DNA of 64,000 nucleotides from Amoebophrya sp. A120 (Eukaryota; Protista; Dinoflagellata): positions 1,291,858 through 1,355,857 of the forward strand of contig CAJINV010000014.1 of NCBI GenBank assembly GCA_905178155.1, read 5' to 3'. Position 1 is the first letter of the stretch; every line of letters starts with the position of its first letter. Made by a program: the position numbers and the translations under genes. Of this stretch, positions 5,221-41,900 are shown one piece after another. The notes below the pieces were generated by a model, which made no database searches, was not told where the DNA came from, and worked only from the letters and a program-made list of their open reading frames with translations.

Positions 5221-6290
5221 TGTTGAGAGAGCAGGAACAAATTGAAATTCTCTCATCAGATTAAAGGAACGAATTTTTTATGTAGGCTTCATTTCTGCAA
5301 ACGAAACTTTCGTACAGATAAAAAGATTGTAACGGTAATACTACTAGCTTTTGAAAAAGGTTCAGACTTTTGATACCCCGGTGGGTCATCTGAATTTGTA
5401 TGGTCGTGAACATAGCTCTGCTGAAATAGTGCTTCGGAATACTATACGTCATTCTGGGTATTATTTGCGGACCCAAGTCCACAGTAGAACGTATGGCCGG
5501 GGTACAAGCCGGTCTAGGGGGCGGGGTTCGAGCTCCCTCTGAAGGTGAACAATGAGGCCTGTTTCTGTTTCGGGCATACTCCGTTTGTATTTTTTTACTC
5601 CCCTAGCGTTTGTTTTGTTGTTTTAACTTGCGTTTTCATGTTTGAAAAAAAAACCGTGAACAATAATCAAGAAAGTACTAGAGAACTGGACAGATGAACA
5701 TTTGTGGAACTTTTTTTCGTACTATAAACGGTAGTAAAAAGAGGTAAGCTAGAAGGTCTTGACGAACAGGACGCCGTACCGGCACTGGAGATCAGAAATA
5801 GTACTCATATCGTGGCGAAGTAAGTACTAGCACAGGCAGCTTCATCTTGAGATGGTACGACGTAGAACTAAATTTTGGATGATCGCGAAGATGTTGAATG
5901 ATTTCACTCCCACGGCAACAGTAAAAGTTTTGGTACATAATTTCCAGTATTCACAAAGATACGCGATTCGTAATTTGATTTTGTTCATTAAAAAAAAGCA
6001 AAAAATCCTACATTGTCTCCCGATACTACAAGACGAAACACGACCAGAGGACGTGCCAACAGCTTTTTTTGTATGACAACAATAAAAACCAAAAAAAATA
6101 AAAAAAAATATTTCCGAAGCGGAGACAGGATAAGACTTCATCGGCCAATCAAACATGTTGAACTCGTGGCATTTTGAACTTTTTTATTGATAGCATTGGT
6201 CTACAACAAACAGGCTCTGCTTTTCATCGATCATGAAAGACGGAACACTAGCTACGCCCTTCTAATTTTTCGAACTCTCAGCAGCACTAG

Positions 6291-6767
6291 TGTAGCGACG
6301 GGTGTCCATAGAAACCGTCTGTACACCATTCTCACCGTGTTCGAAGCGCAAAATAGCATTACAGATTTGCGAGGACAACATGAAAAGATCTTTTCTCCGC
6401 AACAACAAATTCCATTCAACAATAAAAATGAAGTAGATCACGAAATTCTTCTTGTGTACGAAAAAACGTAGCAACAATTTTCCAACACTAGAAATTGTAA
6501 TCCGGACTTCATAGCACGCGAAATTGGCGAGGCAAAACAGTGATGATGAATTTGCGCTGCTTCCAAAAACCATTTTGAACCCAAAAACAGTTAGGAAGTT
6601 TGAGACTACGACGTGCCGCAAACTGCATTGAGCACGCCTGTAAATCTTGAAGTTCAACATCTGTGACAAAACTTGAAAGTAAAATTACAATTGTGAATTC
6701 TTGTTCTCTGTGAAATCATCTTCACGAGAAACTTGCATTCTGTGTTCCACTAAGCACTTTTGCTACA
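6291..6767 (+). repeat. 5' LTR (477 bp)
   Basis: TG...CA ends with a 6-bp inverted repeat TGTAGC/GCTACA. Five substitutions versus the 3' LTR by manual comparison. Confidence 0.97.
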
Positions 6768-6768
6768 G

Positions 6769-6783
6769 TGGTACATCAGCCGG
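6769..6783 (+). promoter_or_regulatory. Primer-binding site, probably tRNA-Gly
   Basis: TGGTACATCAGCCGG starts one base after the LTR end. TGG pairs with the tRNA CCA end. The sequence resembles the complement of eukaryotic tRNA-Gly(GCC) 3' ends (TGGTGCAYYRGCCGG); the tRNA identity is inferred. Confidence 0.75.
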
Positions 6784-6900
6784 CTCGAAAAGACACCGGG
6801 TCAAAGAGAACAAACCGGATAAATAATCCGGAGCCAGTTTTTTTGCATTTAAAAACCGGCAATATTAAACAAAATGCTTTATTTAAATCTCAAAACGTCG

Positions 6901-8059
6901 ATGGCAACGCAAAGTGACTTCTTCTTCATCCAAATCCACCAGCAGCAGCTCGTCGGTCAAGGCAAATAAGCCGGTCGCCGACGCGGCCTGGGGCGCAATC
7001 GACTGTGGAGCAGACTGCTCGGTGATAGATAAAAACAAGGATTGGAGGGAAGCAACTGTATGTAATTGGCAGGCGGCAGTAGCAATCGCAGCCGCCTACC
7101 CAGAAAGCAATACGGTATTCGCGGTAACAAATCTGCCGGTGCAAACGTACAACGACGGCGGATCACCGGAAATACACCGAACAGAAGTAATCCTCTCCCC
7201 GCGCGGACTTGAAAAAGTCTTGCTGCTGGACACGGACGAGGTCAATAAGTGCTCGGAAACGCTCTTGGTGAAGTTGCGGGAGCAAGAGGCGGACGGAGAA
7301 ATCCGGCTCTTCCCCCCGAAGGAAAACGCTTTCGTCGGCGGCGTGAACATTAACGCTGAAAAGGCCGAGGTAGGACAAAAATTGCTTCGCACACCGGCGA
7401 CAGTCGAAGAGTACAACTCACCAAAAACCGGGCACGACTACCACGAAATTTACGACACTCTCCACCGCTTCTTCCCGCACGAACAAGACCTCCCAAAAGG
7501 GTATCGATGCAAAACTTGCGGTACGTCCGCAGACCCCGCCTCTCCGCTGTATCAAACCGAGGACGAAACTACAGCGTACGCGTGGGAGGCTGCGAGAAAA
7601 AAGTCGGGAACAAGCACGAGATTGCAATCGTACCGGGGTGGCGCGCAAATAAAGCACGCCCCTGGTGTCAGGGTTCAGTTGGACGACGACACAAGGCGGT
7701 ACTTCGAAGCAGGCCGCCTTGCGCCGAGGTTGAAGGACAACGCGAAAAAACAGTTAGACGCGATTCTCTGCGACATAAACAACACTCCGAGCGCGAGCCA
7801 CTACTGCGACGCCAAGCGTGTCCTCGATTACGAGCTGAAGACCTTGGCGGGAAACAACACGGAGTGGGTGCAAGCGACGTTCAGCTGGTTCAAGAAAAAC
7901 AATTTGGGACCGGATCACGACACTCGGTTCGTCTACGTGAACCCCTCCGAAATCACGCCCTGGGACGTGGTGAACGCTTTCGCGCAATTCGACTATCCCG
8001 CCTTCCAATTCCTTGACTGCGACCTAAACCGCATTAGCGCAGACGAGCTGGAGTGCTAA
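6901..8059 (+). CDS. Retroelement upstream ORF (ORF0, ~381 aa) with a retropepsin-like motif
   Basis: Open frame 6914-8059 has no in-frame ATG. ATG 6901 is one base out of frame. Motif AIDCGADCSVI has its Asp at 7001. Confidence 0.7.
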
Positions 8060-8067
8060 ACAATTCT

Positions 8068-11000
8068 ATGAACGACACCACGGGGACGCCAGCGTCGCCA
8101 GCCATGTCGAGCATGGAAGAAGCACTTGACGACCTCCAGGAAGCGGAGCAAAAAACAGCCGCCGCGGGAGAGCAGCAGCAACAAGAAATCGGGCTGGTTG
8201 TCAGGGCAACAGAAGGAGAAATAACAGTGTCCGCGGGCGGCGAACCGCAAACCCCGGTGCTGTTCACTTCTCTGTCTTCAAATGTCTCAATGCCAGATGC
8301 AGAAAGCGGAAACCGCTTGCAGCCGCCGCGGGGAGCGAATACAGAAATAAACTTCAGCCTCAGCTCGATAACAAACGAGTCATTTCTTGCAGAATTGCTG
8401 GCCTTGTGCGAGAAGAACAGGGACGAAATGACGACGAAAATCGGCAGCGTTGCGGCAAACTGCGAAAACGGGATTGCCGGGCTACATCGTCGACTGGAGC
8501 TGCAGCACAGCGGCACTCGCGGAGAAATCGCGACACTGCAAAATCGCGACTCGATGCTGGACAACAAAATCCAAGATTTCAAAGGGGAATTATTGCAGAA
8601 CCATGTTACGCAGATTACCGCGGTGGAGAAAATCCAAGCGGACTTCTCCGCCCTCGAGCAAAACTTCGGAGCAATTATCGGCCAGCATCTCAAACAGCAG
8701 CTGCTCGCAGTCCTCGCAAACGACCCGCAGTTCCACGCGCTACACATCATGGTCAATAAGCCCCAGGCAATGGAAATGGTGCAGGAAGCAATTAGCCGTT
8801 CGTACAAGCTAGCAGAGCTGTTTGGAAAGCTAGAAGATAGGGTAAACATCCAGGTGCTGGTGGCATTGCAACAGGTCCCACAAGTCCGGGATCTGGTGTC
8901 GTCGGTCTGCGAGCTTGTCTTGAAAAACGAAGCAAACCAGAAGGCCATTCAAGCCACAGCACAAGCGGTTGCGCAAGACGTGGCAGACGCAGCCAGCGAC
9001 AACCTCATCATGTACAAACAGCAAATCGAATTTCAGGTCGATGGCCAGGCGACAAAGCAAGAGCAGACTCAACAAGACCAAATCCTCATCGATCAGCAAA
9101 TCCGCTCCCTCGCAGAAGATAGGCAGAATCTAGCAGGCCGCGTGGAGAAAACCGAAGAAGCGATAGTCTTGCTCCAGCACGCTGCGACAATAAACGCTGA
9201 AAATCCGCCTGCTGCGCATAACACGCAATCAGCCAACTCCGAAATCTCGGCTCTGTTCCCAGATATGACGCTGGCAACGCGCATGGAAAAGTTGGAGCGT
9301 CGGCTACAAACGGACGATGAGTTCGCTCAACGCCTTTGCAAGCTCGAAATCTCATCAGCTATCAAGCCCTTGCAGGAATCTCTGGAAAAACTGCAACTGC
9401 AACCGCCGCAGCAGCAAGCGAGTCTGCAAGTCGAACCGTTGGCAAGTACGGATGCAGAAACGACCAGTAAGCTTGATGGCGTCTTCGAGCAGAAGCAACA
9501 TGAGATAAATGATTTCTTCGTGGACAAAAAGAAAATTTTCGTTGACGAAATGCAAAAATCCAAAGCCGAAATTGAAAGTTTCTTTGCAGGAAAAAAGAAG
9601 GAGGTCGACGACGCGCGTGACAATCTTGCCGAATTGCGCGCGTCGCTGCAGGAAAAACTCGACAAGCTCGGAGGCGAAGATGTCGTGAGCCGGCAGCTTC
9701 TGCTGGAGGAGAAGTGGAAACAGCTCGACCATAAGCTCCACGAAAGCCAGGTCTCGCTGCAAACCAAGCTGGAGCAGCTAAACGAAACTAAGGAGCAGCA
9801 CCAGGACGACTTGCGGGACGCCAAACTCAACATAAACCTGCACAACAGCCAGCTGCAAATCCTTACGGACCTTCTGCAAACCAAAGCGCCCAACAGGAGA
9901 GAAAACGATAATAGGACGGTAAGCGACCGGTTAGTCGAGCTCGAGGATGCGGTGCAAGAGTGGAATGAAGCCGCAGAGCGGCACAGCTTCTTCGACGAGG
10001 CCGAATACCTCACATGCCCGCAAGCAGCTCCAGCAACTGTAGGGACGCAAAGCGAGAGAATTAGCACGACAATCCAGAACAACCCAGGACAAGCCGCAGC
10101 CGCGCAGGTTTTTGACATCTCCACGCCAGCCAAAGCCGGGGAAATCCGAGGTCAAGATCCGCTGTCGCAGCAGCAAGCACTGATGTCGCCGGAGCAGAAA
10201 GAATACGCGAGAAACCTCTCGGCCGCGCAGCCGCGCTGCAGCGCGGAAGCAGACCGTGACCCTCCAGCAATCAGAACATCATATCATCCGCCCGTGCAAA
10301 GCTCGACTCTACAGGCCGCGAACATCTGTGATGCAATTATGTCGCAGAAGAAGACTCCCGCATCCGTGAATTCGCAAAGAGGCGCATTCGCAGCAGGGTT
10401 CGGTGCTGCCGCTCCTCCGCAGGGTGCACATTATGCGCCGCGATTCTCCAGCTCCAGTGCCGCAAGCAGCGAGATGCACTACTACTCCGAGCAAAATTTT
10501 AACTTCGGAAATTCGCCGCCGGCAAGAGCAATGCCTGCCCCGCGTGAAAGCAACCCGTACACGGAAACGGCGCAAAATAGAGAGGCAGCATTCTCGTTCT
10601 TTGCCCAGCAAAACCAACAGCAAGGCGCATATGCGTACCCGCAGCAAAACGAGCAGCAACAGTACCAAATCGCGAACTTGCCCACGGGAAGCTGGGCGTC
10701 GCATGACTTTGCAGGAGCCAACCTCCCGTCCCTCCGACAACAGCAAAGCGGTGCGTTCTTTGAAAAAACGCTGTCGCGGCGGGGAAGCGCGGAATCGGAC
10801 GTTGGAGACAGCGCCAGTGTAGTGGCGTCAATCGCCGGGGTTTCCGCAACCGCCTCCTCCGCAAGCGCAAGCAGCAAGCTCGTATCAGCAGTTGGCGACG
10901 GTGTAGGACAAACGGAATATTTCGCAGCCGAGCTCGTACCACGAAATGAGCGCGCGTGGCGCTCGCGCTTCGGAGGCACTGCAAAAATCCTCGCAACAGA

Positions 11001-14000
11001 ACAGGATAAGGACGACGCGGCGAGCGGAATCTATCCGATCGCGCATCTCCTGCAGCGAGCAAAACTTCCACTTCGTATCAAAGACGCAGAAGGCGTGCCC
11101 GAGGACGCAGAAATCCAGCAATTGTTGCTGTCCGAGGACGAGAACAACGAAACATCACTCCTGGTCCACGCGTACATCGCGAATAACGACGACGCACAGG
11201 CATTCGCGAGACTGCAGGAGCACGAAAAACTGACGGTGTGGAAGCTCAACTACGACGATTCGCGCAAAGCTATCTCTGACCACTTCGAGGTAAAACCAGT
11301 CGACGTCCGCCTGATTATGTTCGCGGGCAGCCTCAACCTCTGCTTCAAAATAAAACCGCAAGCGAAAAAAGACGGAGGAAAAGGCACAAACATGAACGAG
11401 TGGATCAAGCGGCTCAACCAAATGCGGAATTGCAAGATCGTCGCGAAGCTTAGTGATATCAAATCCTCGCAGAGCCAGCTGCAGGCGCTTGACGATGGGC
11501 AGGAATTAGACGCGCTGAAAAGCGATGCCGAGCATGACTACAAACTCGCGCACATGGTGCTGAAACGAAAACCCAACCAAGAGGACCTGTCGCCGGATTT
11601 CGTGGAGATGCTCCAGCAGGTAGACGAGAAATTGAAGGACGCCCGCTCCAGAAACAAGAGTCACGGCGGCAATTTTTCTCTTGCAAAATGGAAGGCGCAG
11701 GGACTAGAAAGCATGCTGTCGCTGATCAACGTCGTGCACGCCCAGGCTACGGGGGAAATCGAGCTGGATTATAAAAAGGCCTTCGAATACATCGGTCAAA
11801 AGTGGCAAGAGAGATTCGAAGTCCCGCTGGATGGAACTGCTGTCGCGAAACTCCGCAAACAGGTCGTCTTCGAGCACAAGCCACCGGCAAATGCGGCCGT
11901 GATCGACATCCAGTCGTGGATAGAACAGCATGAGCACAGGCTGACGCGGATGATCGAATATTGCATCGGTTCGAAGCAGCAGGTCCCAAACCTCGACGCT
12001 ACGCCAGACCGAGACTCCACCGCGCAGGAATTGAACAACCTGTACCACGAAGTGTTGCAACAATTCCGCACCGAGTTCGACAACAGCATGATGTCGCACA
12101 AGCCAACGCCGCTCCCACCAAACAAGCACACGCCGCGCATCGTGCTAACCGCCTACAAGGAAATCGTAATCTATAAAGTCCAGCTTGCCCGCCAAACAGC
12201 AGTTCTCTCTCCTGGTGAAAAAACTTCTCCGCCAGGTGGAGGTGCAGCAAACGGCGGCCGAGGTGGTGCAGGAAACACAAGCAACCCCGATGCTACTGTG
12301 AAGAAAGCTGCAGCTGCAGAGCGAAGGGCGGCCGCGCTACGAGAAAAAGAGGAGGCTGCTCGGAAACTCCAGGAGCAGCAACATCTCGATGCAGCAAACG
12401 CCGCTGCGGCAGCCGCAAGACAACAGAACGCAGAGGTGCCCGTGTGGACGATCAAGTGCAAGGGAGTAGGTCACGTTGCACAGGAGTGCAAGAAAAATCT
12501 GGAGATCCAGAAAGAGGGCAGCAAATACACAATCATCCTCAACACCACCGAGCTTTGCAAAACCTGCAACGGGAAGCACGCGCTGTTCAAGAGGCTGGTT
12601 GGAAACCCAAACGCACCGCTAATCGCAATGACGTGCCCAAAAGACCTCGCTGCGCTCCCAGATTCGCATTACAACAAACTTAAAAAAGAAGGTAAAGTCG
12701 ATGATAATACCGTTTGCGGAATGAGCATACAGCTTTGTAAAAACGATGCTGGAGAACTTGTCAAGTACAATCCAAAAGGAAAAGGAAAGGGCGGTTCCAG
12801 CAGCGATAAGAACTGGCGAAGCAACAGTAAGCAGACGGACGACGGCAAAGCAGACGGAGGACGAAGACCGCCCCCTGCGGGTGCTGCTGCTGCTGCTGCT
12901 GCTGCTGCTGCGGCGGCAGGCGGGGCTGCGCAAGCTGCAAAAGCGACCGCGAAAAAAGCTGCTGCGCCGGCCCAAGGAGAAACTATCATCGGCGTTCCGA
13001 AGATGATGCCGGCACCGAGGCGCGCTGCGGCGCTGCGAAGCTGCACTGTGTCGGATGACGGCGTCTTCCCAGCGAAGCGGGTGAAGAAAATGACCAGCGA
13101 TACGACGCCAGAAGGGCACTTCGTCCAATTCGAGATTGGCAATAGCGGCCGCAAGTACTGGTGCCAAATAGATACCGGTGACGACTTCGGCAACATCATC
13201 GACCCGGAACAGTACGAAGATTTGTTGAAGAACCATGAAGCGGAAATCGAAGAGGGATTTGTTGAGTTGGGTAAAGACTGCAGCCTCGCTGCGGGGCAAT
13301 TCGCCCCGTCTGCCCAACGCCTCCGGTTCTCGAAGTCAGTGCATGTAACAATGACAATCCGCGACAAAAATAATCCCGAATTGTTTATGATGCACAAAGC
13401 GCTGTACTTGGTTTCTGAAATTCCAATAGGACAACCTTTCGCGCTTTCTTTGCAAACCGCGCAAGCCATGAATCTGGTCCCGAAGGAAATTCAAATCCCC
13501 GTCGATGACGGCACCGGTAACAAGCTGTTGATCACACCGCAACAGGGAAAAGCCGCGTCCTCGCTTCACCTTTCAAACATCCGGAAGTTGAAAAAACCGT
13601 GCCAACAGTCCTACGAGCAGGTCGATCCGGAAACAGTGCTGACCTACGCGCCGAAACCGTACCTCGAACCAATCGAAGTCATGGACATCGAATTGGAAGT
13701 CCCAAGAGAAAAAGCGGTGGGTTACGGCTATTTTGCTGTTGCACCGACAAAACAGCTCGAGAAACGGCAAGTTTGGTTCACACCGGTGGTGGCGCCTCAA
13801 ATCATCCCAGGCAACGCAGGCACAAAACAGCAGCGGAGAGTGGTGTTGAATTTGCAGATCGAAAGCCTCGACGTCCGTGCAGCAATGCTTGACGAAGGGG
13901 AGGTGAAGGTAACAATCGCGACGGGCCCGGCGCGGCAAGCAGTGGTGAGCCGCGAGCTCGTGAAAAAACATCTGGCAGAGGACATGCCGGTGCTTCTCGA

Positions 14001-14547
14001 CGAAGAAGTCTGTGATAAGTGGATGCGAAAGCTGTCGAGCACGGAGCTAGAGGAAGACCTCAAGCACATTCGCACTTCGAAATTCCACGCGAAGCAGGCC
14101 TCGCTCGAGACCCGGGATGAGGATGCTATTGTAGCCCTGCAAGAGGAAATCCGCAAAGCGCGGGAGGAGGAGGAATCAGGTGAACCGCTCGCGAAAGTCA
14201 CCCACGACCACTACATCCGAACTTGCAGCGAGGAACTCTCCAAAGAAACAACTCATCGTCTTGCCGTTTCAGCATCACACATCCTCGCGACGCACCAACC
14301 CGGCGAACCACAGCCAGTCTTGAAGGGCTGCATCGCAAAGTGGACTATGGGCCCGAACGAGGAAGCTGCAGCTGCCCGTCCGATTGAGCTCAACCGCTAC
14401 AACGAAATCGCCATGGATTATCACGTGGAGGAAGCAATTCGATCCGACAAGGACGAACCTTACGGCTGGCAGCAAATCAATGGTCCTGCGGGGCCGCCGC
14501 GCATCATCTCTCCTGGGTTTCTGGTGAAACACGTGAAGAAAGACTAG
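8068..14547 (+). CDS. gag-pro: Gag-like polyprotein with aspartic protease and the N-terminal part of RT
   Basis: Long predicted coiled coil (~8400-9970). Degenerate zinc knuckle CKGVGHVAQEC (12457-12489) plus CKTCNGKH. Protease motif CQIDTGDDFGNII (DTG 13171-13179). RT entry motifs RPIELN...IISPGFLVKHVKKD end at an in-frame TAG (14545-14547). Confidence 0.85.
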   Translation: MNDTTGTPASPAMSSMEEALDDLQEAEQKTAAAGEQQQQEIGLVVRATEGEITVSAGGEPQTPVLFTSLSSNVSMPDAESGNRLQPPRGANTEINFSLSSITNESFLAELLALCEKNRDEMTTKIGSVAANCENGIAGLHRRLELQHSGTRGEIATLQNRDSMLDNKIQDFKGELLQNHVTQITAVEKIQADFSALEQNFGAIIGQHLKQQLLAVLANDPQFHALHIMVNKPQAMEMVQEAISRSYKLAELFGKLEDRVNIQVLVALQQVPQVRDLVSSVCELVLKNEANQKAIQATAQAVAQDVADAASDNLIMYKQQIEFQVDGQATKQEQTQQDQILIDQQIRSLAEDRQNLAGRVEKTEEAIVLLQHAATINAENPPAAHNTQSANSEISALFPDMTLATRMEKLERRLQTDDEFAQRLCKLEISSAIKPLQESLEKLQLQPPQQQASLQVEPLASTDAETTSKLDGVFEQKQHEINDFFVDKKKIFVDEMQKSKAEIESFFAGKKKEVDDARDNLAELRASLQEKLDKLGGEDVVSRQLLLEEKWKQLDHKLHESQVSLQTKLEQLNETKEQHQDDLRDAKLNINLHNSQLQILTDLLQTKAPNRRENDNRTVSDRLVELEDAVQEWNEAAERHSFFDEAEYLTCPQAAPATVGTQSERISTTIQNNPGQAAAAQVFDISTPAKAGEIRGQDPLSQQQALMSPEQKEYARNLSAAQPRCSAEADRDPPAIRTSYHPPVQSSTLQAANICDAIMSQKKTPASVNSQRGAFAAGFGAAAPPQGAHYAPRFSSSSAASSEMHYYSEQNFNFGNSPPARAMPAPRESNPYTETAQNREAAFSFFAQQNQQQGAYAYPQQNEQQQYQIANLPTGSWASHDFAGANLPSLRQQQSGAFFEKTLSRRGSAESDVGDSASVVASIAGVSATASSASASSKLVSAVGDGVGQTEYFAAELVPRNERAWRSRFGGTAKILATEQDKDDAASGIYPIAHLLQRAKLPLRIKDAEGVPEDAEIQQLLLSEDENNETSLLVHAYIANNDDAQAFARLQEHEKLTVWKLNYDDSRKAISDHFEVKPVDVRLIMFAGSLNLCFKIKPQAKKDGGKGTNMNEWIKRLNQMRNCKIVAKLSDIKSSQSQLQALDDGQELDALKSDAEHDYKLAHMVLKRKPNQEDLSPDFVEMLQQVDEKLKDARSRNKSHGGNFSLAKWKAQGLESMLSLINVVHAQATGEIELDYKKAFEYIGQKWQERFEVPLDGTAVAKLRKQVVFEHKPPANAAVIDIQSWIEQHEHRLTRMIEYCIGSKQQVPNLDATPDRDSTAQELNNLYHEVLQQFRTEFDNSMMSHKPTPLPPNKHTPRIVLTAYKEIVIYKVQLARQTAVLSPGEKTSPPGGGAANGGRGGAGNTSNPDATVKKAAAAERRAAALREKEEAARKLQEQQHLDAANAAAAAARQQNAEVPVWTIKCKGVGHVAQECKKNLEIQKEGSKYTIILNTTELCKTCNGKHALFKRLVGNPNAPLIAMTCPKDLAALPDSHYNKLKKEGKVDDNTVCGMSIQLCKNDAGELVKYNPKGKGKGGSSSDKNWRSNSKQTDDGKADGGRRPPPAGAAAAAAAAAAAAGGAAQAAKATAKKAAAPAQGETIIGVPKMMPAPRRAAALRSCTVSDDGVFPAKRVKKMTSDTTPEGHFVQFEIGNSGRKYWCQIDTGDDFGNIIDPEQYEDLLKNHEAEIEEGFVELGKDCSLAAGQFAPSAQRLRFSKSVHVTMTIRDKNNPELFMMHKALYLVSEIPIGQPFALSLQTAQAMNLVPKEIQIPVDDGTGNKLLITPQQGKAASSLHLSNIRKLKKPCQQSYEQVDPETVLTYAPKPYLEPIEVMDIELEVPREKAVGYGYFAVAPTKQLEKRQVWFTPVVAPQIIPGNAGTKQQRRVVLNLQIESLDVRAAMLDEGEVKVTIATGPARQAVVSRELVKKHLAEDMPVLLDEEVCDKWMRKLSSTELEEDLKHIRTSKFHAKQASLETRDEDAIVALQEEIRKAREEEESGEPLAKVTHDHYIRTCSEELSKETTHRLAVSASHILATHQPGEPQPVLKGCIAKWTMGPNEEAAAARPIELNRYNEIAMDYHVEEAIRSDKDEPYGWQQINGPAGPPRIISPGFLVKHVKKD

Positions 14548-17500
14548 ACCACAGGAAAAATGAAGCCAGTCCGCCGCAAGCGCATTGCGATCAACTACCA
14601 GCTGCACAACGTAAAAGCCAGGGGGTGTGCGTGGGTCCCAGTGCAAAATAGAAACCTCTTCTACAAAAGCCGGAAGTTTAAATTCGTGCGCGACGCGTTC
14701 TTCGGGTTCAGCACGCTGCGAATCAGCTACAAAACGTCGGCGCTCGCTGCGTGGTCAACAGGATTACGAAGACGTCCTGTCATGCGACCAAAACGGTGTG
14801 GGCTAGGGCCGAAGCAGAACCCAAACAACTTCTCAATGCGAAGCGAGACAGCGTTCGGGTGGCAGCAAAACGCGAAAGGAGAATATAGCACCCACGTGTT
14901 CATGGACGATGTGAAAAACAGCGGCGACGATATTCAAACCGAAGTCGCGGGAGCAGTCTTTGCATCAAAAGAAAATGACCACTACCCGGTGCTGCTGTGC
15001 GACAGAGAAGACTGGGAAATTGATTCGGAACCGGACGCCGAGTCGGAAGAAGAAGCCGTGGACTCCGGGCTTCCGCTGGATCCGAAAATGCACGCGAAAT
15101 TCCGCCAGGAACCGGAGGAGGTGATGGCGCGTAACGCTGCGGAGCTGAAATTCGACCGCGAGGTTATGCGCAACACTTGCAACCGCAGCCGGTTGTATAA
15201 CACCGGCTTCGAAAATATCAACGACCAGTCGACTGTGCTGCCGCGTGAAAAAATCGCCACCCCTGCTTGCATGCAAGAGACCGATCGCGGAAAGATTGAA
15301 GCCCACACAATTGATGCTTTCGCTACTCTTGCATGGCAAACTGCCTTCGAGCAGGACTGGAAAAAAATAATCGCGATTATCACGACTGATCTTGATGGAA
15401 ATGTGTTGCACGCAGCGCTCCAGACCGAATCCGGTATCACGCTTGAAGCCGCGATCGCGCCTGTTAGCGGTGCAAACAACAGACCGCGCGACACGATTAC
15501 CACATGGATTTTTTCGGACGCGAAAACCGCCGAAAAGTACCTCCACCTGCACCGGAAAGTGTGGTACGAAAACGACGTAGTCGATGCGGACGCCCGGATC
15601 AACGCGCAGGCCAAACTCTGCGGTTTTGCTTTTAGCATTGCAAAACTCCAGCCTGCGTCTCTGACTGTCAAGTGGCTAGGGGAAATTGTGCATTCCGACG
15701 GCGGTACCGGGATCAACCCGGAGCAAATAGAGAAGCTTCGCGAACTTGCAAAGGAGGCTTCGAAGGACGCGGTAACGGCAGTAGTGCACATCTCGAGCTG
15801 GGAGGGAGTGAGAAACTACATCTACAACCACGCCGAAGCGGTGCTGCCGCTCCGCCCGTATCTGCTCCCAAAAAACAATCCCAAGCACAAGCCCATCGCC
15901 CTCTTCAAAACCGACGTCGCAGCACATGATGCACTAGTCAAAGTAGCAAAAAAGGCAGACCCGAAGCTACGAAAGTATCCTATAGACTGGCAAACAATCC
16001 TCTACTTCGTCGGGTTTGGCGACGCGTCGAAAATTAAGTGGAGCGTGAGCCTGTGGGGCTCGTACGAAGAAGAACCAAAAATGCGGCTGCACGACAACGC
16101 GGATCAGATGTGGCGCACGGAGCTAAGCTGGCCAGCAAAAACTAGAGAGCTCCGCTGCATGAAGAATTTCTTCAAGTACCTGTACCCGCTGACGGAAGGT
16201 GTAAATCTCGTCTACTGTCACGACCACCTGTCAAACAGCCCAGAACAGCTCCTCTCCTCCCTTGACGGCGTAAACGTCGATGAAGTAGTCAAACGCGACA
16301 TCCACTTCCTCAAGCCATTTCTCGCTACGACGTGGTTCCTCCACCTGGGCGGAACCGCTCTCCGCTTTCCGGATGGCAGAAGCCGCTTCTATGACCTCGA
16401 AGACTTCAACCTGCAAAAAATCGTCCCAAAAGAAGCGTGCGACATCGCGAAAGTGGCGTTGTTTTGGCTTCTGAATCCAACCGCACGGGAAGATCCAGAA
16501 TGGAAAGCGAAGTTCATTCAAATGGGTAAGGAGCTGGCAGAAATGGTGGATGACGACCAAGCCTTCGAAGATGAAGCCGAGATGGAAGGTAAAATTTCAG
16601 CGGTGCGAAAACTTGGCGCGCCGCAATGCGAAGACGCAGGGCTGCAAACCGCGCTCCTGTGTGTGGACCCCGAAGGACCAGATGCACATGTCGCCACAAT
16701 CGGCAGGGTCCGCAGCTTGTGTTGGGCAAACACCACCCACGCCTGTGTGCGGGCGGCGAAGAACGAAAAGAAGCAAAAAACCAGTAGCAGTTCTAGCAGC
16801 GCCGGCGCCCAGAAGCCGAAGGAGGAGGAAAGCAAAATCAAGCCCACCTACGGCGGACGCGGCAGGGTGGACTGGGAAGAAATTTTCGATGAACCGACAG
16901 CGGTGATTCGCCCAAAGCGCCTCTACACCAAGCGCGACGTGCAGGTCAAGTCGGGGCATGAGTACTTCAACTATGTGCTTGATGTGGAAGTCACGCAGGG
17001 CGGAAAAACAGAAAAGATCACGCGCTGGTTCGGCCGGAATAAGTTCAAGAAGCTCGACAAAAATCTATCCGACGAGCAGGCTACAAAAATGGCTTACGAG
17101 GAGGCGCTTGCGTTTTTGCGGAAAGCCGTTGGCTTGCGGTGGGCAGAGGAGCAGAAGCAGCTCGAGCACGGATACCACGGGGACGTAAACCATAACTTCA
17201 TTATCCTCGATCCGATTGCAAGCGAAACGAACAACCCGGTCCCGCAATTCGCAAACGACTTCACCTGCCGCAATGTGATGTTCAAAGACCAAAACTACTG
17301 CGACAACTACCTGATTCTGCGCGAAGCAGTCAACTGCACTTACGCACGCTGCAGGGGTCACGGCGACGTCGTGCTGCACAAGCCCTCAGAAAACGACGAC
17401 TTTACGCCGCTGCACGATGTTGGCGTCCCTGTGGAAAGCGAGTTGAAGTGGACAACAGCAAATAAAGAGCTCCATGAAAAAGTTGCTCTTCCGCTCCTGC

Positions 17501-18822
17501 AGCGCTGGTTTGGTAAACAGGCCGCAGACGGCGATGACATTCCCTCCGGAGACTCCAAGCCCGACGGGGAGAAAGCCGTGCCGCCGCTGCCACAGGAAAA
17601 TCTGATTCCGCGCGAGGAGGGAGTACAAGCCAGTCCCGCTGCTGTGCAACAGCAGGCTGCCGCAAACGAGCCTGCGCAGCCTAAGCCGCATGAAGAACCC
17701 GCTGCACCTGCGCCACAGGAAAAACGGCAACCCGACGCCGTGGCACAGGTCGAGGACCTTGCGCAGGAAGAGCAGGCAGAAAGCGATACTCCGGCAGATA
17801 AAATTTACAAGTACAATTACCGCGGACACCGTGTCCCGGACGAGTTTGTTTTCAAAACAGCAACCGAGGGGCAGAAATATTCCGACCCGTTCCCACCGAT
17901 GAAGACGAAAAACACCTTCTTTGTCGCAGGGATAAACGCCGGCTCGGATGACCTGCACTTTGGCGGCGCAGGCTTGAACAAACGCTTCCAGGAGGTCCTC
18001 GGTGATAAGAAAACCAGCACCCTCTGGGACGTCGCTGCGCAGAAAAAATTCCACATCGAGCTCGAGAAAAAGCTGCTCGCGCAACCAGGTGAAGTGTTCT
18101 CCTGCGACGACAAGGAATTCCTCGAAAAATTCAGCAAGCGGTTTGCGGTCGGGATTGCAACAGGAGGTAAATCGCGAACAGCAACAGTCTTCCTGTCTGC
18201 AGAAAAATCAGACCGGTTCCGCGTCATGGTCTACGCCGTTGGCCCACGCGGAGAAATTTGCTCGAAAGAAAGCTTCTTGGCAGGAATACGGCTTACGACA
18301 AAGCAGATTGTGAACGTAATCCACCACTATAACGACTACGCGCAGCGGAAGATCAAAACAGTACGGATGCCACTTTTGTCGGGCGGGCTCTACCGCAAAC
18401 CGCGAACCAGCCCGGCGAAAATAGCAGATGCGATTCTGGAAACGTTCCTTGAAGAGTACAGCAAAATTGAAAAGAAAAACCGCTTCACCGTCGAGTTCGC
18501 CATCGCAGAAAATGCGTTCTCCGAGGCCTATCGTGAAAACAGGGAGATCATCGTCAGCAAGAACGCCAAGTCGGTGTGTTCTCTTGGCGCAGGCGCGGTC
18601 CGTGCGGCAAGCAAAAAGAAAAAGAAACCGCTGCTACCGGACTTTGACCTCGACTTTGGCGATGAAATCGACCTCAGTCTCTTCCCCGTCGAAAGCAACC
18701 TGCAGCAGGACGAGGAAATAGAAGCGGGCGGCCATACGCTACAGGAACACTTGAACCGCTCATCTACGAAGCGGTCGACACCGAGCAGGAAAGAATACTA
18801 CGATCGCTGCCCGAGATGTTAA
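14548..18822 (+). CDS. pol: Pol: RT, RNase H, AP2-like domain and Macro domain (same frame as gag-pro, after the TAG)
   Basis: RT motifs RIAINYQLHN, FVRDAFFGF, CGLGPKQNPNNF, FMDD (14899-14910) and VKWLGEIV. Ty3-type RNase H motifs GDAS (16021), TRELRC, HDH and PDGRSR (~16386). Macro motifs INAGS-GGAGLN, YAVGP and MPLLSGGLY (~17917-18537). Confidence 0.9.
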   Translation, partial: TTGKMKPVRRKRIAINYQLHNVKARGCAWVPVQNRNLFYKSRKFKFVRDAFFGFSTLRISYKTSALAAWSTGLRRRPVMRPKRCGLGPKQNPNNFSMRSETAFGWQQNAKGEYSTHVFMDDVKNSGDDIQTEVAGAVFASKENDHYPVLLCDREDWEIDSEPDAESEEEAVDSGLPLDPKMHAKFRQEPEEVMARNAAELKFDREVMRNTCNRSRLYNTGFENINDQSTVLPREKIATPACMQETDRGKIEAHTIDAFATLAWQTAFEQDWKKIIAIITTDLDGNVLHAALQTESGITLEAAIAPVSGANNRPRDTITTWIFSDAKTAEKYLHLHRKVWYENDVVDADARINAQAKLCGFAFSIAKLQPASLTVKWLGEIVHSDGGTGINPEQIEKLRELAKEASKDAVTAVVHISSWEGVRNYIYNHAEAVLPLRPYLLPKNNPKHKPIALFKTDVAAHDALVKVAKKADPKLRKYPIDWQTILYFVGFGDASKIKWSVSLWGSYEEEPKMRLHDNADQMWRTELSWPAKTRELRCMKNFFKYLYPLTEGVNLVYCHDHLSNSPEQLLSSLDGVNVDEVVKRDIHFLKPFLATTWFLHLGGTALRFPDGRSRFYDLEDFNLQKIVPKEACDIAKVALFWLLNPTAREDPEWKAKFIQMGKELAEMVDDDQAFEDEAEMEGKISAVRKLGAPQCEDAGLQTALLCVDPEGPDAHVATIGRVRSLCWANTTHACVRAAKNEKKQKTSSSSSSAGAQKPKEEESKIKPTYGGRGRVDWEEIFDEPTAVIRPKRLYTKRDVQVKSGHEYFNYVLDVEVTQGGKTEKITRWFGRNKFKKLDKNLSDEQATKMAYEEALAFLRKAVGLRWAEEQKQLEHGYHGDVNHNFIILDPIASETNNPVPQFANDFTCRNVMFKDQNYCDNYLILREAVNCTYARCRGHGDVVLHKPSENDDFTPLHDVGVPVESELKWTTANKELHEKVALPLLQRWFGKQAADGDDIPSGDSKPDGEKAVPPLPQENLIPREEGVQASPAAVQQQAAANEPAQPKPHEEPAAPAPQEKRQPDAVAQVEDLAQEEQAESDTPADKIYKYNYRGHRVPDEFVFKTATEGQKYSDPFPPMKTKNTFFVAGINAGSDDLHFGGAGLNKRFQEVLGDKKTSTLWDVAAQKKFHIELEKKLLAQPGEVFSCDDKEFLEKFSKRFAVGIATGGKSRTATVFLSAEKSDRFRVMVYAVGPRGEICSKESFLAGIRLTTKQIVNVIHHYNDYAQRKIKTVRMPLLSGGLYRKPRTSPAKIADAILETFLEEYSKIEKKNRFTVEFAIAENAFSEAYRENREIIVSKNAKSVCSLGAGAVRAASKKKKKPLLPDFDLDFGDEIDLSLFPVESNLQQDEEIEAGGHTLQEHLNRSSTKRSTPSRKEYYDRCPRC

Positions 18823-34300: not shown

Positions 34301-35938
34301 GCAGGGCCGCGATGGTGATGCAGTCGGCTTTCACTTTCATCGCTTAATACCGCATGATCCAGATGGATCCTCATGGTGGTCATACTTGAACGCATTTCGG
34401 ATTGTACTAGGCTTTGTCTTTGGTATGTTGATCTACATTTTTCACGATATGTTTTGTTGTTTCCGTTTCAAGTAGAATTTGTTTCGATTTTGCACAAGAA
34501 AAAGCATCTTCCTGTCGCGGCGGCGCGTGCCACGTGCACGACCCTCGCTAGGAAAGACATTTGTGAACGAAGAACATTTTCGCGTTTCCAAGAAAGAGAT
34601 GGCACATGGTGAGAACATCATGATGATGATGATGTTGTTTGCGCATTCAGTTTACTACCTCTCACAAAGAAGGCATTGCAGTCCTCGTGGCGCTGTACTT
34701 GCAAAGTGCTTCGCTTTGGCCAAATGATGTGATGATGACCACGGTCGTCGGAGAAAGAGCCGAAGTTCTATGGCGGAAGGTGAAGGTCAAGGAAGATCTG
34801 CTAGAAGAGCAGCGTTGGTCAGTCTGAAGATAGTTTTCATTTGATTCATCGATCTGCTTCTGCAGAAAGGAACGGCTTCAATGATGTCCTGTCGGGCAGA
34901 GGAAGACTCACATCGCGCGCGTATTTTCAAGAATTTGGAACTTTCTGGGGTAGAATGGATTTATTCATCGAAAAGTTTCAGACCTAATGAGTGCCCGTGG
35001 TAGTTTTACTGCTGCTTGATGGCATATTAGATATGGAAAAGAAATCATGGACTGCGTTTATTTGTGTTGGTGTGCACGCGCGCATCATGGTTTAACTCTC
35101 CTTACGTCAATTGTAATGCGCTTTCACAACTAATTCTGACTCATCTAACAAACAAGAACAATTAGAATCCGGCGGCACAATTGGCGTGTTTTTTCATCAA
35201 TCGATCTGGAGCTAGTAAGTAGCTCTTCAGTACAAGACGCAAAAAACCTGTATTTTTTTTCTCCACGTCTTCACCAATTCTGTTTCTGATTAAATAAAGT
35301 AGTGATTGCAGGAGTCTCTGCCTCACAAGATGCAAATTTCGGTTGCTGGTCGTGTTGAAGACCGTTGAGTGAAAACGCACACACCAAGCAGGCGGCGTCC
35401 GCTTCCTTTACCGCGGATCAATGGAGCAGACCAGCACTGCGCTGCCCGTCAAGCCAGAGATGAAATGCCAGCTTGCTGGCCACGACCAAGAGGGGCCGCA
35501 GGAGGTACGTATACTTAAGTGCTGCAGCGCTACTGAGACTGATGAAAGATCAGTTGCTGTGCTATGAATAAAATAAGTCGAAGGAGCATAATGCGTTAAT
35601 AATTTCAAATTCGAACTACAACTCATTTCACATGCAAAAATACCCTGAAGTGAAGAAATGTTTTCGATTTTTGTCTCTTTAGGTGTCAGAAAGGATCTCG
35701 GATGATCCCAGGCGTGTCGACGAGCAGATCGCGTGCGCGGTAAGTGGAAAAATCATCAGTGCGTTCAAATTGATGTTGCGTAGCTGCAGCACGGATTGCT
35801 CGCAAGTCTATCGAAGTTTCAGTTTGTGGGGTGTGCAGTATGTGATTTTCTTGCTCAGAAGATAAAGACGAACAAACAAGTCTTCTACTTGTAATAAACT
35901 TGTGTGCGAAACAGAATCCATCGACCAGCGTGACCGCG

Positions 35939-38900
35939 ATGGCCGCGGGAGGTGGACATGGCGAAAATGAGCTGCCTGCTGCCGGCGCGGATGAAGCTGA
36001 AGCAGTTCTTCAAACGCAGGACGATCTTGACAACGAGAAAGAAAAGAGAAAGACTGTCATGCGCCGCATCACGACTCCCGATTTTTCCACGGTAATTGTG
36101 GCAGGAACATCACGTTTTGAGAAAAATGTGACACCGACCCCCGCCAGGGATGAAGCTAGCCCCCATGTTGAGCATGATCCACTCCATCTCAACATCGCGG
36201 CCAAAAGACCGTCGGTGACGGTTACGGAAGCCACGGGAACACCAGCAGTGTTGGGCGACGAGGAGGGTTTATTTGTGACCCCCGAGCATCAAATTACAGT
36301 ACCGTCACCCGGAAGAACCAGCGACGAGAAGAACGATAGAGCTTCATGCGATCATGATTTGTTTGCGAAACATAAAGATGTAGAAGTGGACCACCAGCAC
36401 CACCAAGTGCTGACCCCGAAACGACAGGATCATGGGGACGATGGCCTTGACGTCGACGGGGAAAGAACTCGGCGCATGATCAACCAATTTGACGAGAAGA
36501 TTCTTGACCATGAGGAAAAAACGAAAAGCAGCTCTTGTGGAGAGCAAGTAACGGCTTGCGCTGCTGTACTCGTTGAACAAAAAGAAGAGCCCTCGTCCGT
36601 TGCTCCTCTTCTCGATCTGGGTCTATTCGATGAGGTTCCAACTCCAGAGCTGCGGCTCCTGTCAGGAACAACACAACAGCAGGTAATTGCAACGGGGGGC
36701 GCGAGGACAAACGATCTGAATCAAAAGCCAACTACCGGAGTCGATTTCTCGGGCCTGGATTCCTTGTTCGGGCTTCCTGCAGCTCACTCTGAACATCACC
36801 TCCCCGCCGTTCCGGACAATAAGACGACGCTGGACGTCGTGGTTGAGAACAGAAGTACTTCTAAAACTGCTATCGCTTCTACCGCCAACATGAAAATAAA
36901 TTTGTCCTGCGCTAGATCGTCATCAACTTCATCTGAGACATGCGACGATGTTTTGTCTCTCCTGGAGCTGTTGGAAGAGCACACGTTGGAAAAGGTTACT
37001 TGCAAGAACGTTTCCCCCGTGCTGCAGGCGAGGAAGGAGATAGTCCTCTGGCATACGGAGAAGCTACTTGTCAACATCTACGGGGCGGTCAGAGCTCCTT
37101 CAAGCGGTGAAGAGATTCTCGTGGAAAAATGCCGGAGGATCATGCTTCTCCGAGGACCAAGAGGACGTACCAACAAGGCGGTTTCTCCGTGGCGGAAACA
37201 GCTCCAAGAGCAGGAACTACAGGCGGAAGACCGGACTAGAATGTTGGCAGTGAGTGCCTCTGTGAAGCAGGTAGTTGTAGGAGCTTCTACTACCCTAGTT
37301 CATCATCCTGGTGCAAGTAGATCTGGTGCTGAACATGATCCAGAAATGCTTGCTCCACCAAAGCTGGAATCCAAGCAGCTGGTGGACTTTCTGCTGCGCA
37401 TGAAGGATGTGTGCCACGCCGATTACTTCGACTTGCTCTACGAGATTGGTTTCCCGATCGCCTTGGAAGCATTGCAAAGCTTGGCTGTGCAACAGGAAGT
37501 CGGACAGCAAAATGGCACCGATGGTGAAAATGAAGGCGGGCCACGTGAAACTACACAAACTGCACAACTAGAAATCCTCTCCTCAGCTACTGTAAAAGCC
37601 AGCAATTCTACTTCGTCCAGCACGTCACAAGCTACACCACCTTGTTTCGCTGCGTTCGTTTTCCACCTCCTCACCCCTTTTTTGTGCAACCGGTATTCCC
37701 GGATCATCGCCGGGAAATACCTGGAGCAATACAGCGAGCTGATACACCTGCACGGGGCGGAGCCGGTGGCAAACGTTCTTTTCGGGGATGAAAATAGCCA
37801 CGACCCTTGTTGTGACGGCGGCGCGGGTGGAGAGGGTACTAGTCGTGCTGACATCTTCAAACGGTTGCAAACAATAGCACAAGTAGGACCACCAGGGCCC
37901 GATGATGCCAGTGAAGTTCACTGTTTGCTGAACACCTTGGAGAATCGGAAAGGGAGCAACAGCGAATATCTGCACACGGGGAGAAAACTCGCGCTCAGCT
38001 TCAAAATCAAGCGAAAAGAATTGCTCAGTTTGCATGGTTCTTCTAGTACTAGGGGGAAAAAGGAGATGAAGATGCTGGGTTGTGCGAAAAATAACACGAA
38101 AACCACTATACGACCCGATGAACATGAGGACCTTCTTGGTTTGGACGTTTCTTTCAAGAGAGTGAGATGGAAGGACACAGAGCCCTGTGGAGGTGGCCCT
38201 TTGGTGGAAACGATCATCAGGACTGCGGAAGACTACGAGCGGGAACGAGTGTACGGTTCTTACGTCGAGAATTACGGCAGCTTTTCTACACCCAAAAACT
38301 GCATTGGCGGTCCTCGTGGTGCAAGAACTACTAAGTTCGATGATCCCTTCCTGGCAGTCCTGGACAAACTCGCCGACGAAAAGCACACCCCCACGCCGGT
38401 GGCGAAGGGGAGAAAGCGGATTGAGCAGGATCTTCCTGATGATCCGCTCGCTTCTCTATTTGGCTTTGCGCCGAGCCCAAGCCGAAAGGAGAGGGAGGAG
38501 GAAAGGAAGAAGGAAAAGCGGCGGGAAGAAAGTCTGCTAGTGAAATCTCGTCTGCTGGATTTGGAAAGTTGCGAGGAGCAGGAGGACGCTGGGGGTGTGC
38601 TTCGAGATCATGATGGTACGAGCGCGGCAGAGGCTGTGGATGATAAAGTAATAGAGGGTAGTACTAGCTGCGTACATGATGCTAAGAAAGCCTGCCCTCT
38701 GGCTGACCTCTTTGCTATCAACGAGGACGCTAGTGTGATGGCTGCACGACCTAATACCGGTGAGCATCTCCCTGACCAGTCGAGCGCTATCGTGACAGCT
38801 AGCGGTACTACGAGCGCCGGCGCAGCAGCTCAACCTTCTGGTGCTGATACAAACAAGAAACAGAATGCCTTTCTTCTCCTCCTTCCGCTGTTCGACCCTT

Positions 38901-41900
38901 TACGGTGCGAGATCTCAGGAAAGTACCCCACTCTGCCCGCGATTCGCATGCCGGCACCTCCGCCGTTCACAAAGACGGCAACCTCGACGCTTTACTCTTC
39001 CAACAAGGTGGTGGCCTCTGAGAAGGCGAAGGCAGGAAAAACGGTTGGATTTTCGGGGGTTGAGCAAATCAAGATAGACGACAAAATCACAACACTCGTC
39101 CCACTGACGACAGCGACAGAAGGCGTAAACCGAGCTTCAGATAGTGGACCGCCACGACGAACTATCAGCGCAGCTGCAGCAGCTGTTTTGGAGCCGCTGC
39201 AACGAACGGCACCGCCAGAGGCAAATGCGGGGGCAAGAAGCAGGTCAATAATAGCTGCAGCGCCGGCACTTGCCGCTGTTCCGCAAGCCCAGTGCTCTCG
39301 GACCAGGCCTGGGTGTGAAGGTTTCGAGTTTCAGAAGTTGTTCCCCGGCAAGTTCGCGGAAATGAAAAACGTGCTCCGGGACCGAGCCCTGCTCGAGCGG
39401 CAGACCGTAGCGTTCCGCTACCTCGTTGCGGAACTGAAGTCGCATAAGCCCCTGCCCGTCCCGCCCAGGTTTCTGAACTACCTCGATGGGTGGAAGCTCG
39501 CGGCCTCGCAAAACCCGAGCGGCAGTCTGGCGGACAGAATTTTCCTGGGTACGAGAGTCCGGGAAAAACCGCTGACGCACTTGGTGCTCAGCTACCGGTT
39601 TTTTCTCGACAGAAGCGGCATGGATTTGCAGGAGAAGTTTTTCCGGGAGGATTTCGTGACCTGCAGGTCTTTGCTTGCTGCTACGCTGCATGTCCCGGAG
39701 AGCAGTGTTGAAGATTTGAAAATCTTCTATTTGAACAACGTGCTGAGCAGCGCGTTTGGCGGTTGTGGTAAGAACACCAACAGCAGTAGCGCGAAAAAGA
39801 GCAAGACGAGCAAAGGTGGGAAAAATAAAGTAGACAAGAATCGTGCCAATAAGGGGAAGGGGAGCAAGCAGACGAATCGTCGGGGCTCCAAATCGGACGA
39901 CGAACTGTTCGAAGATGATGAAGTTGAGTACGCCGTGAACATTTTTCTAGTGCAGTTTCTCATTCAGCTCCCGGACAAGTACAGGGTTCTTCCTGCGGTT
40001 AAGAAAACGACGACGGCGGTGTCGAAAGTAGCTGCCGCGGCCCCGGCCACGAGGGCAGCTATCAGTACAACGCTTACTCCATTGCCACGAGCCACCGCAC
40101 CGACTGCCGCTTCCAGTACCATATCTGCGGTAGGTGGAGTAGCTAGTACAAAGAAGCCGGCGGCGTCCACGACGACGGCTACGAGCGCTGCAGCCCGATA
40201 CGCGGACATCAAGGCCAAGTTGAGCAGCGTCCTGCCATCGAGGTCGTCGGCAGTCAGCAGTATCAATAAAGCCGCGAGCGCGGCGGGACCGGGACCGGGA
40301 GCAACTACAGCGCCGGGCGTAGCTCTTGTAGGTACTACTGCGTCGCAGCCAGCAGCTCGCGCGTCCACGTCTACCACGAGCGCGGCAGCAGCTGGAGCAA
40401 CAGGAGTAGGAGCAATGAAGCCTGGGAAAATTTTAATTTGCAGGGATGGCACAATCGTCAGAAACCTGTCCGTAGTTCAAGAACAGCAAGCCACTACTGC
40501 CGGAGCAATGTTAAAAAGCGCGGGAAGTAGTAGTAAATGCACAGGGCCGCGGGGGGCACCCGCTCCTTCAGGTGTCGTACTACCAGGAACACAGAGTCAG
40601 TTGCAAAGCAGAAATACAGAACCTCTGGAAAAAATTTCCAGTCTGATAGACGCGGACCTCTTGGATTTGCAAGACAATGGTCCCGCAGCTACAATCGGCC
40701 GCGCGGCGCAAGAGGTAAAGCACGACCACGACCCGCCGCCGGCACAGCAGCAGAAAAGCCGTTTCGTCGCCGCTTCATCGATATCCTACGTTACCGCGGA
40801 CATGCGCGAGAATCAGAGTCCGTGCAGCGATCTCGGGCCGCCCGGGATGGAGAGGTTCTCGCTTGATCCAACCATTATGATCGACGGAGTAGAAAGTAGT
40901 CCTGCAGCGAATGAAAAAAAAAGTAAGATCGAAGATGAAGTGTCGCCATTGGTTTCACACTACTGCGCGACCAAGTCGCATTCGAATACAAAAATCTCCA
41001 CTTCTAGTAGTGGTGGTGCTGAACAGACGGCAACTGCAACGATAGCTAGACCCCCACCTGCTGCGAATTCCAGTTCCACTTTGCTAGACCGCATCATGGA
41101 GAGCAACCATAGCACCGCTTCGGATTCATCTGACCAAACCGCAAGAAACCTGATGATTCCGTTCCCCCCTGGCCTTGGTGTGGCGCCCGAGGCGGTCCCA
41201 CAGCAACAGGATTTGATCAGTTTCGATGTTGTCCCGGACGACGGACGACCTGATGTTGCGTGCTCTGGGAAAGAAGTTGGTGGCACTTCTGCTGCGCCGG
41301 ATGTTGTAGGAGTGCAGCTGATCCAGAATGATGAGTGCCGTGAGCAGACGTCACAACTCGCGGGGGCCAGCATACAAGAAAGCTGCGTCGAAGAGGAAAT
41401 AAGTCCTACTCCACCACAACTCGAACTGCCCTGCCTGCTGCAGACCAGTGCTAGTGCACCAAAACTTCTTCGTCCGAAGATGCAACTCGATGGGGGAGGA
41501 CCAGGACCAGAAGTTGTCACACCAGCAGGCCGCTTTGCTCATGCTCCACATCAAGACGAATCGGAGTCGGACGGCATCCAGCTGGGCGCAAACTGCGTGA
41601 GCGGCTCCAACTATTCATCGGGAGTAGAGGAGTCTTGTTCGCCCCGCGGCAGTGCGGGCCAGCAAACCGGGTTTGTGAACAGCTCGGACGGCGAAATTTT
41701 CTCCAACGGAAGTTGTGGAGCAGGAGCAATACCAATGAACGGCACGACCGGGGGCAAATCATCTGTGGTAACGAGCACCTTTCTGCAAAAGAACATGATG
41801 TTCACGATGGGGGCCCGCGGAGAAGGCACTTCTTCTTGCGAAGATGTAGTTGACCCAATCAACATGGTTGGAACACTCAACCAGGCCGCCGTTGTCACGA

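Follow-up and report, generated by a model that had tools for sequence, protein, structure and literature searches.

What does a macrodomain do inside the polyprotein of a retrotransposon, and where did it come from? The question is raised by a 64,000-nucleotide (nt) stretch of the dinoflagellate Amoebophrya sp. A120 (assembly GCA_905178155.1, contig CAJINV010000014.1, positions 1,291,858 to 1,355,857), here called the window. It harbours a Gypsy-like long terminal repeat (LTR) retrotransposon of 19.2 kb with an internal region of 18.2 kb. All coordinates are window positions and all features of the element lie on the forward strand. A first-pass annotation, made from the letters alone, had placed a macrodomain that binds or hydrolyses ADP-ribose in the Pol region of this element, between ribonuclease H (RNase H) and integrase. 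As judged from its predicted fold, the domain is a macrodomain nearest to the MAF1 proteins of Toxoplasma gondii.

The macrodomain, its family and its origin

In the open reading frame 14548–18822 the motifs INAGS (17932–17946), FGGAGLN (17959–17979), YAVGP (18232–18246) and LSGGLY (18376–18393) follow one another in the order given by the first-pass annotation. A hidden Markov model (HMM) trained on 41 homologous domain rows, from which the element was excluded, scored the element at 149 bits, and the best of 500 shuffles reached 5.8 bits. No second macrodomain copy was detected with this HMM in the six frames of the window. The macrodomain identity proposed earlier holds for the predicted fold but not for the Pfam Macro model (PF01661), which gave a weak match (14.8 bits, E 0.027) below its gathering cut-off of 22 bits and to the second half of the domain only. 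The Pfam model also misses all 40 homologues described below (E 0.01) and thus does not cover this subfamily. The folded domain (17845–18561) begins about 24 residues before the start first proposed. Its position between the RNase H-like motifs (16018–16386) and the HHCC and DDE motifs of the integrase (19347–19838) was given correctly, but in the window the integrase lies in another frame.

An AlphaFold2 model of the domain, built with an alignment of the element and 35 of the 40 homologues described below, reached a predicted local distance difference test (pLDDT) score of 90.8 and a predicted template modelling score of 0.90; structure prediction from the single sequence gave a pLDDT of only 39. 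Foldseek placed MAF1 chains on ranks 1 to 8 (E 4e-13, template modelling score (TM) 0.79), including the ADP-ribose complexes 6bxt and 6bxw; E values of roughly 1e-6 to 1e-5 followed for Af1521, MacroD2, PARP14 and domains of alphaviruses. With VIA-align the highest Z, 25.8, was that of MAF1b (root-mean-square deviation 2.7, 230 aligned residues), followed by PARP9 and PARP14 (16.3), the best alphavirus chain (15.3), HCoV-229E (12.6), DarG (12.3), TARG1 (10.7) and the yeast Appr-1''-p phosphatase (10.5). By this model the domain is a member of the macrodomain superfamily with an alpha/beta/alpha fold, and its nearest class is the MAF1 type, far above the other macro classes. It is not of the coronavirus and alphavirus type cited in the first-pass annotation. 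Since the MAF1 crystal entries 6bxt and 6bxw contain ADP-ribose, the domain of the element likely binds ADP-ribose as well.

A phmmer search of 1.84 billion representatives yielded 40 matches at E ≤0.001, the best at 2e-11, with 26–41% identity. A profile of the element and 35 of these 40 matches found Toxoplasma MAF1 at 4e-32, the next entry being at 0.14. Names were looked up for 21 of the 40, and homologues beyond the named ones are given without organism. The named homologues are from Amoebophrya (P0004, P0006, P0010, P0011), Vitrella (P0037, Alba-like), gregarines (P0003, P0009, P0014) and Endozoicomonas (P0039). The ESM Atlas further led, at 0.91–0.92, to a Macro cluster of bacteria and to two others with many giant-virus members. 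The homologues show fusions to Alba (weak in Pfam; P0037, P0016), ubiquitin hydrolase (P0005, P0008), endonuclease/phosphatase (P0017) and a cytidylyltransferase-like domain (P0036). In P0038 the macrodomain is triplicated, and the alveolate proteins P0004, P0006, P0010, P0016, P0031 and P0037 combine an Alba-like N-terminus with a MAF1-type macrodomain unseen by Pfam. By sequence similarity the domain belongs to a family unnamed in Pfam that comprises members in Amoebophrya, Vitrella, gregarines and one bacterium, and the Alba fusions suggest a nucleic-acid-linked cellular role for the family from which MAF1 came. Word-index protein searches, which are weak as negatives, found nothing for the macrodomain or for reverse transcriptase (RT) with RNase H in longer proteins, nor for the integrase core at near lengths. 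No relative was returned by metagenome scans with the integrase and with the macrodomain or by tblastn against phages.

The first-pass annotation had let its claim depend on a Macro HMM or structural match, which the predicted fold supplies, and on the domain being present, and not neutrally evolving, in sister copies; both of the latter were found in contigs of the DNA run X1. This run may be from the source sample of the window, in which case it is not independent of the assembly. Its contigs cover 30 of 30 bins of the element and contain two sequence types, one of them about 90% identical to the window. In the macrodomain this diverged type differs from the window by 21 synonymous and 8 non-synonymous changes over 63 and 210 sites, giving a ratio of non-synonymous to synonymous divergence (dN/dS) of 0.089 (Fisher p 2e-9). 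These values come from the three stretches that show the diverged type, 273 of about 680 nt, and exclude the segment between YAVGP and SGGLY, for which X1 has a single collapsed contig. One of the 21 synonymous differences occurs in both types of X1, and different copies may have given rise to the three diverged contigs. The macrodomain is under purifying selection. Between the window and the collapsed X1 contigs, 23 of 31 fixed coding differences among the 40 listed of 1208 variant rows were non-synonymous, as expected of unselected changes or assembly noise. The GC content at third codon positions is 0.64 in the macrodomain and 0.63–0.69 in other regions of the element, and this likeness suggests old residence. 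The capture was presumably made long ago, from an alveolate-type family.

A probable sister domain is found in P0011, a partial protein of Amoebophrya A25 with two accessions on two contigs. Its alignment with the element extends into the linker upstream of the domain (28% over 260 residues), and a shortened loop is common to the element and P0011 (12 and 13 residues), against 15 residues in one row and 18–26 in the other 39. P0011 may represent this domain in a related element. In the tree the two were joined at 84/89 with a long-branch warning, the branch of the element being long, and each alone was unplaced. The trees were made without P0020, which is partial, and the single-placement tree and the approximately unbiased (AU) test also without eight further rows. 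The Alba-type proteins of Amoebophrya, which have NAGSD in common, account for three of the five best BLASTP scores among the 40 matches at about 30% identity, and the Alba-fused Amoebophrya clade as sister group was not rejected by the AU test (p 0.43). A donor phylogeny as called for earlier leaves the Alba-type proteins neither established nor rejected as donor. The Alba-fused gene of the host lineage is a candidate donor.

Pocket residues and the possible role of the domain

The first-pass annotation had taken the changes from NAAN to NAGS and from HAVGP to YAVGP as signs of a domain that may bind rather than hydrolyse. The family speaks against this argument: all 41 homologous rows have the Tyr of YAVGP and 40 of the 41 have the Gly of NAG, so both motifs are family traits and not decay. 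In the accessible part of PMC10221186 hydrolase activity is tied to Asn or Ser and a Gly flanking loop 1 and to a hydrophobic-aromatic pair in loop 2, so that Ser is allowed at the Asn site. The element fills the four sites with Ser34, Gly43, Leu182 and Tyr183 in sequence register. All four are met in 4 of the 41 rows, placing the element on the hydrolase-like edge of the family, and the pocket-lining motifs NAG, GG, GP and SGG are its best-conserved parts. The four residues argue that the domain likely removes ADP-ribose.

Several observations weigh against hydrolysis. Asp occupies the Asn/Ser site in 23 of 41 rows and Thr/Ala are found there in MAF1a/b, so the four-residue rule may not transfer to this family. 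Loop 1 is one residue longer, and the residue register derives from sequence only. P0011 has Arg-Asn at the loop-2 pair, and in the diverged sister sequence Ser replaces Asn45, a residue kept in all 40 filled rows. The rule is moreover imperfect, as activity is reported in macrodomains once deemed inactive (PMC11920425, accessible part), and no hydrolase activity was demonstrated for any family member in the literature covered.

The reading favoured here, which is held tentatively, is that of an ADP-ribose eraser captured long ago and protecting the element. An alveolate-type macrodomain would have been captured into the Pol region between the RNase H motifs and the integrase, and it would be translated as part of Pol and presumably packaged with it. 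A host ADP-ribosyltransferase would modify the element. The macrodomain would bind ADP-ribose and clear it from the element's own proteins or from phosphorylated RNA or DNA ends of reverse transcription, a process in which 5′-phosphorylated RNA ends arise. Its removal would shield replication from host ADP-ribosylation. The stripping of ADP-ribose caps from 5′-phosphorylated RNA by macrodomains is described in the accessible part of PMC11920425.

The main rival, which we consider rather unlikely, is a non-catalytic reader that remains joined to the integrase and, in place of a chromodomain, directs the integration complex towards ADP-ribosylated chromatin or broken DNA. The macrodomain is indeed the nearest folded domain upstream of the N-terminal extension of the integrase, with a basic patch between them. 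Pfam scans, which also miss the RT, found no chromodomain at the integrase C-terminus, in agreement with the earlier annotation. MAF1 binds ADP-ribose in crystals despite having no Asn/Ser at loop 1, and the missing loop-2 pair of P0011 points the same way. The element nevertheless retains all four hydrolase-linked residues, and about 260 residues, in part an acidic linker open to possible cutting by the protease, lie between the domain and the HHCC motif. The targeting modules known from Gypsy integrases are, furthermore, C-terminal. An improbable role is that of a protein-interaction module, in which a host protein would be bound at a MAF1b-like surface and the ADP-ribose pocket would be vestigial. 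According to the accessible part of PMC10821591, MAF1b binds RalGAPalpha1 via a surface loop and needs its C-terminal helix for mitochondrial association, and the long branch of the element would suit such a role; yet it is the pocket motifs that are best kept, and the domain lies inside Pol without signal peptide or membrane anchor.

Slightly less probable again is RNA housekeeping in the particle, where the domain would process ADP-ribose-1''-phosphate or phosphate-blocked tRNA or RNA ends and ease priming without any host conflict. In fish endogenous retroviruses (ERVs) a cyclic-nucleotide phosphodiesterase is found as an alternative to macro domains (PMC4977317, accessible part). The fusion of host-type members to the nucleic-acid-binding Alba domain, by name in P0037 and by weak Pfam matches in P0037 and P0016, also fits this role. 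Most LTR elements, however, prime without such a domain, and the structural similarity to the Appr-1''-p phosphatase of yeast is remote. It is very unlikely that the domain is a passenger, a captured host fragment kept merely for the Pol frame or kept because it is useful to the parasite and not to the element. The window copy is defective as assembled, with an RT stop and a frame break, but a dN/dS of 0.09, a fold predicted to be intact in a sequence whose nearest relatives are about 30% identical and a probable counterpart in another Amoebophrya strain all speak against a passenger.

The element, its copies and the rest of the window

The element is bounded by a 5-bp target-site duplication (6286–6290, identical to 25481–25485) and by LTRs of 477 nt with TG...CA ends. 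The 3′ LTR (25004–25480) is a direct repeat of the 5′ LTR (6291–6767), 472 of 477 positions being identical and 5 differing. A primer-binding-site-like stretch (6769–6786) starts with TGG one base past the LTR, as read from the letters; the 64-kb window contains no tRNA gene. A polypurine tract lies at 24993–25003. The element has the TG...CA LTRs, the target duplication of 4–6 bp, the putative primer-binding site and the polypurine tract of Ty3/Gypsy. It also has their domain order of protease, RT, RNase H and integrase with Gypsy-type HHCC and DDE motifs in the integrase, the first three by motif only.

An upstream open frame of 390 codons (6887–8059) has no significant Pfam or PHROG match. 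The frame for Gag, protease and the start of RT (8068–14547) contains a zinc-knuckle-like stretch (12454–12579), DTG (13168–13179) and an RT finger motif (14506) and ends at an in-frame TAG; Pfam zf-CCHC is weak in it (E 0.058) and the remaining parts are motif reading. The rest of RT and the RNase H-like domain (14548–16386) follow with FMDD (14899–14910), GDAS (16018), RELR, CHDH (16216) and PDGRSR (to 16386). Directly after FMDD lies an insertion of about 190 amino acids in RT (14911–15500) with an acidic patch and no family match. These parts, which we take to be protease, RT and RNase H from motif patterns, stand without confirmation from Pfam, PHROG or PDB, where RT and RNase H had no match. 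For RT/RNase H the ESM Atlas gave a lead at 0.93, a cluster in which 19% of the members carry RVT_1 and 10% RT_RNaseH.

Between RNase H and the macrodomain lies a spacer of about 490 amino acids (16387–17844), an unassigned segment followed by a Pro/Gln/Glu-rich linker, without significant family. A resemblance to an AP2-type DNA-binding fold of three strands and a helix, noted by eye at 16915–17160, was not supported by Pfam (only PFU, E 0.006), PHROG or PDB. Downstream of the macrodomain, 18562–18822 holds a KKKKKP basic patch and an acidic linker, and near 18747 the frame breaks. The integrase (18750–20627) comprises the N-terminal extension, HHCC (19347–19466), D-D-E (19548–19838) and a GPY/F-like motif (20223), and matches Pfam Integrase_H2C2 (E 6e-9), foamy-virus integrase (7e-12) and Ty3 (9e-10). 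For its N-terminal extension before HHCC, about 170 residues (18750–19250), no family was found. The 4.4-kb 3′ region (20628–24992) has three extra open frames (21542–22057, 23569–24666 and 24401–24937) with no family and no transmembrane-strength segment; one of them is coiled-coil-like, and a short triplicated motif lies near 21042–21193.

As assembled, the window copy is defective by the TAG in frame within the RT fingers (14545–14547) and by the integrase in another frame. The only X1 contig across 18747 has one base more than the window at a depth of 60.9 of 60.9, and with this base the macrodomain and the integrase would share one frame. In sister copies they would thus be one polyprotein. 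A programmed -1 frameshift before the integrase was rejected, since the overlap has no XXXYYYZ-type slippery heptamer and the DNA contig has the extra base. The RT stop at 14545 is not among the 40 listed of 1208 variant rows between X1 and the window. Over the LTR bin X1 has about four times the depth, and contigs run from the LTR ends into different flanks (5 upstream, 5 downstream), which agrees with additional insertions or with solo LTRs. Over 6200–24990, differences in which the window has T and the X1 contig A or G are more frequent than their equivalents on the reverse strand (T>G 78 vs A>C 43; T>A 71 vs A>T 27); this skew may be an artefact of contig simplification. RNA runs labelled with the same species, three in number, gave 17–38 reads, none in coding bins, and were not used as evidence. 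RNA run X6 contains 19 reads with a poly(A) end at 6238, some 50 bases upstream of the target duplication, and the element may sit just downstream of the end of a host transcript.

Elsewhere in the window a 2.2-kb stretch (47511–49728) lies between inverted repeats of about 150 nt and 83% similarity and resembles a miniature inverted-repeat element or DNA transposon; another related copy, the third, occurs near 2035–2188. A G-rich tandem array of 10-nt units (53317–53506), an inverted array of 11-nt units (54605–54836) and repeats of about 120 nt (54940–55247) were also seen. An open frame of 3639 codons (35846–46765) has low-complexity tracts and no Pfam family, and Pfam identifies ankyrin-repeat coding frames at 58867–61305.

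Known relatives and meaning

The closest known system is MAF1a/MAF1b of T. gondii (PDB 6bxr, 6bxs, 6bxt, 6bxw, two of them with ADP-ribose by entry title), of the same subfamily by profile and predicted fold. Whereas MAF1, a stand-alone secreted protein of the vacuole, recruits host mitochondria (PMC10821591, accessible part), the domain of the element is internal to a retrotransposon Pol. In structural alignments the two are 18–21% identical, and at loop 1 MAF1 has Thr/Ala and the element Ser. The Alba-fused and stand-alone macrodomains of Amoebophrya, Vitrella and gregarines (P0004, P0006, P0010, P0037, P0003, P0009, P0014) are of the same family but are cellular genes; at the position of the element's loop-1 Gly they have Ala, and they retain a loop of about 7 residues that is missing in the element and P0011. 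Coronavirus Mac1, alphavirus nsP3 and macrodomain 1 of PARP9/PARP14 have the Macro fold and, in sequence register, the four catalytic positions in common with the element. MacroD-type hydrolases are 12–21% identical to it; the element differs from them by NAGS and YAVGP in place of NAAN and HAVGP and by a longer loop 1, and about 60 more aligned residues are common to the element and MAF1 only.

Macro domains in fish ERVs are described in the accessible part of PMC4977317, which cites Basta et al. 2009. Those of fish and amphibian ERVs are likewise retroelement macrodomains, but they lie in an extra open frame or in Gag of vertebrate retroviruses and belong to another macro class; the ERV Gag of the toad Rhinella marina was a weak match in the viral fold library (rank 17, TM 0.48, E 6e-5). 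The giant Ty3/Gypsy elements Burro and Ogre resemble the element in being very long with accessory domains in the polyprotein, but their hosts are planarians and plants, and the internal region of the element is below the 20-kb limit used in the accessible part of that review (PMC6431247), where the word 'macro' does not occur. The main text of the Amoebophrya genome paper (PMC7789003) treats LTR elements in general only and nowhere has 'macro', and a review of dinoflagellate genomics (PMC11453091) nowhere has 'macrodomain'. In literature consisting mostly of titles and abstract starts, with few subscription journals and without Repbase, no paper was found that describes a mobile element with a MAF1-type domain or an Amoebophrya retrotransposon with a macrodomain. 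Macrodomains in vertebrate ERVs are already known, and what appears to be new is a MAF1-type macrodomain in the Pol of an LTR retrotransposon.

A wider and rather unlikely proposal is that the MAF1 fold represents an old, unnamed family of ADP-ribose erasers, and that Amoebophrya retrotransposons took it from an Alba-fused host gene to undo ADP-ribosylation of mobile elements, which would be a further independent capture beside the macro domains of vertebrate ERVs. By this analysis the Toxoplasma effector MAF1 belongs to a larger family, missed by Pfam, that has cellular, Alba-fused and mobile members, and the small soluble domain of the element offers direct assay material for the activity of this family. 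Viral macrodomains are the classic mark of the conflict over ADP-ribosylation in animals, and a different macro class under strong purifying selection in a protist retrotransposon suggests that transposons in lineages without an interferon system may share such a conflict. If the wider proposal is true, ADP-ribosylation would be a general defence against retroelements that reaches alveolate protists.

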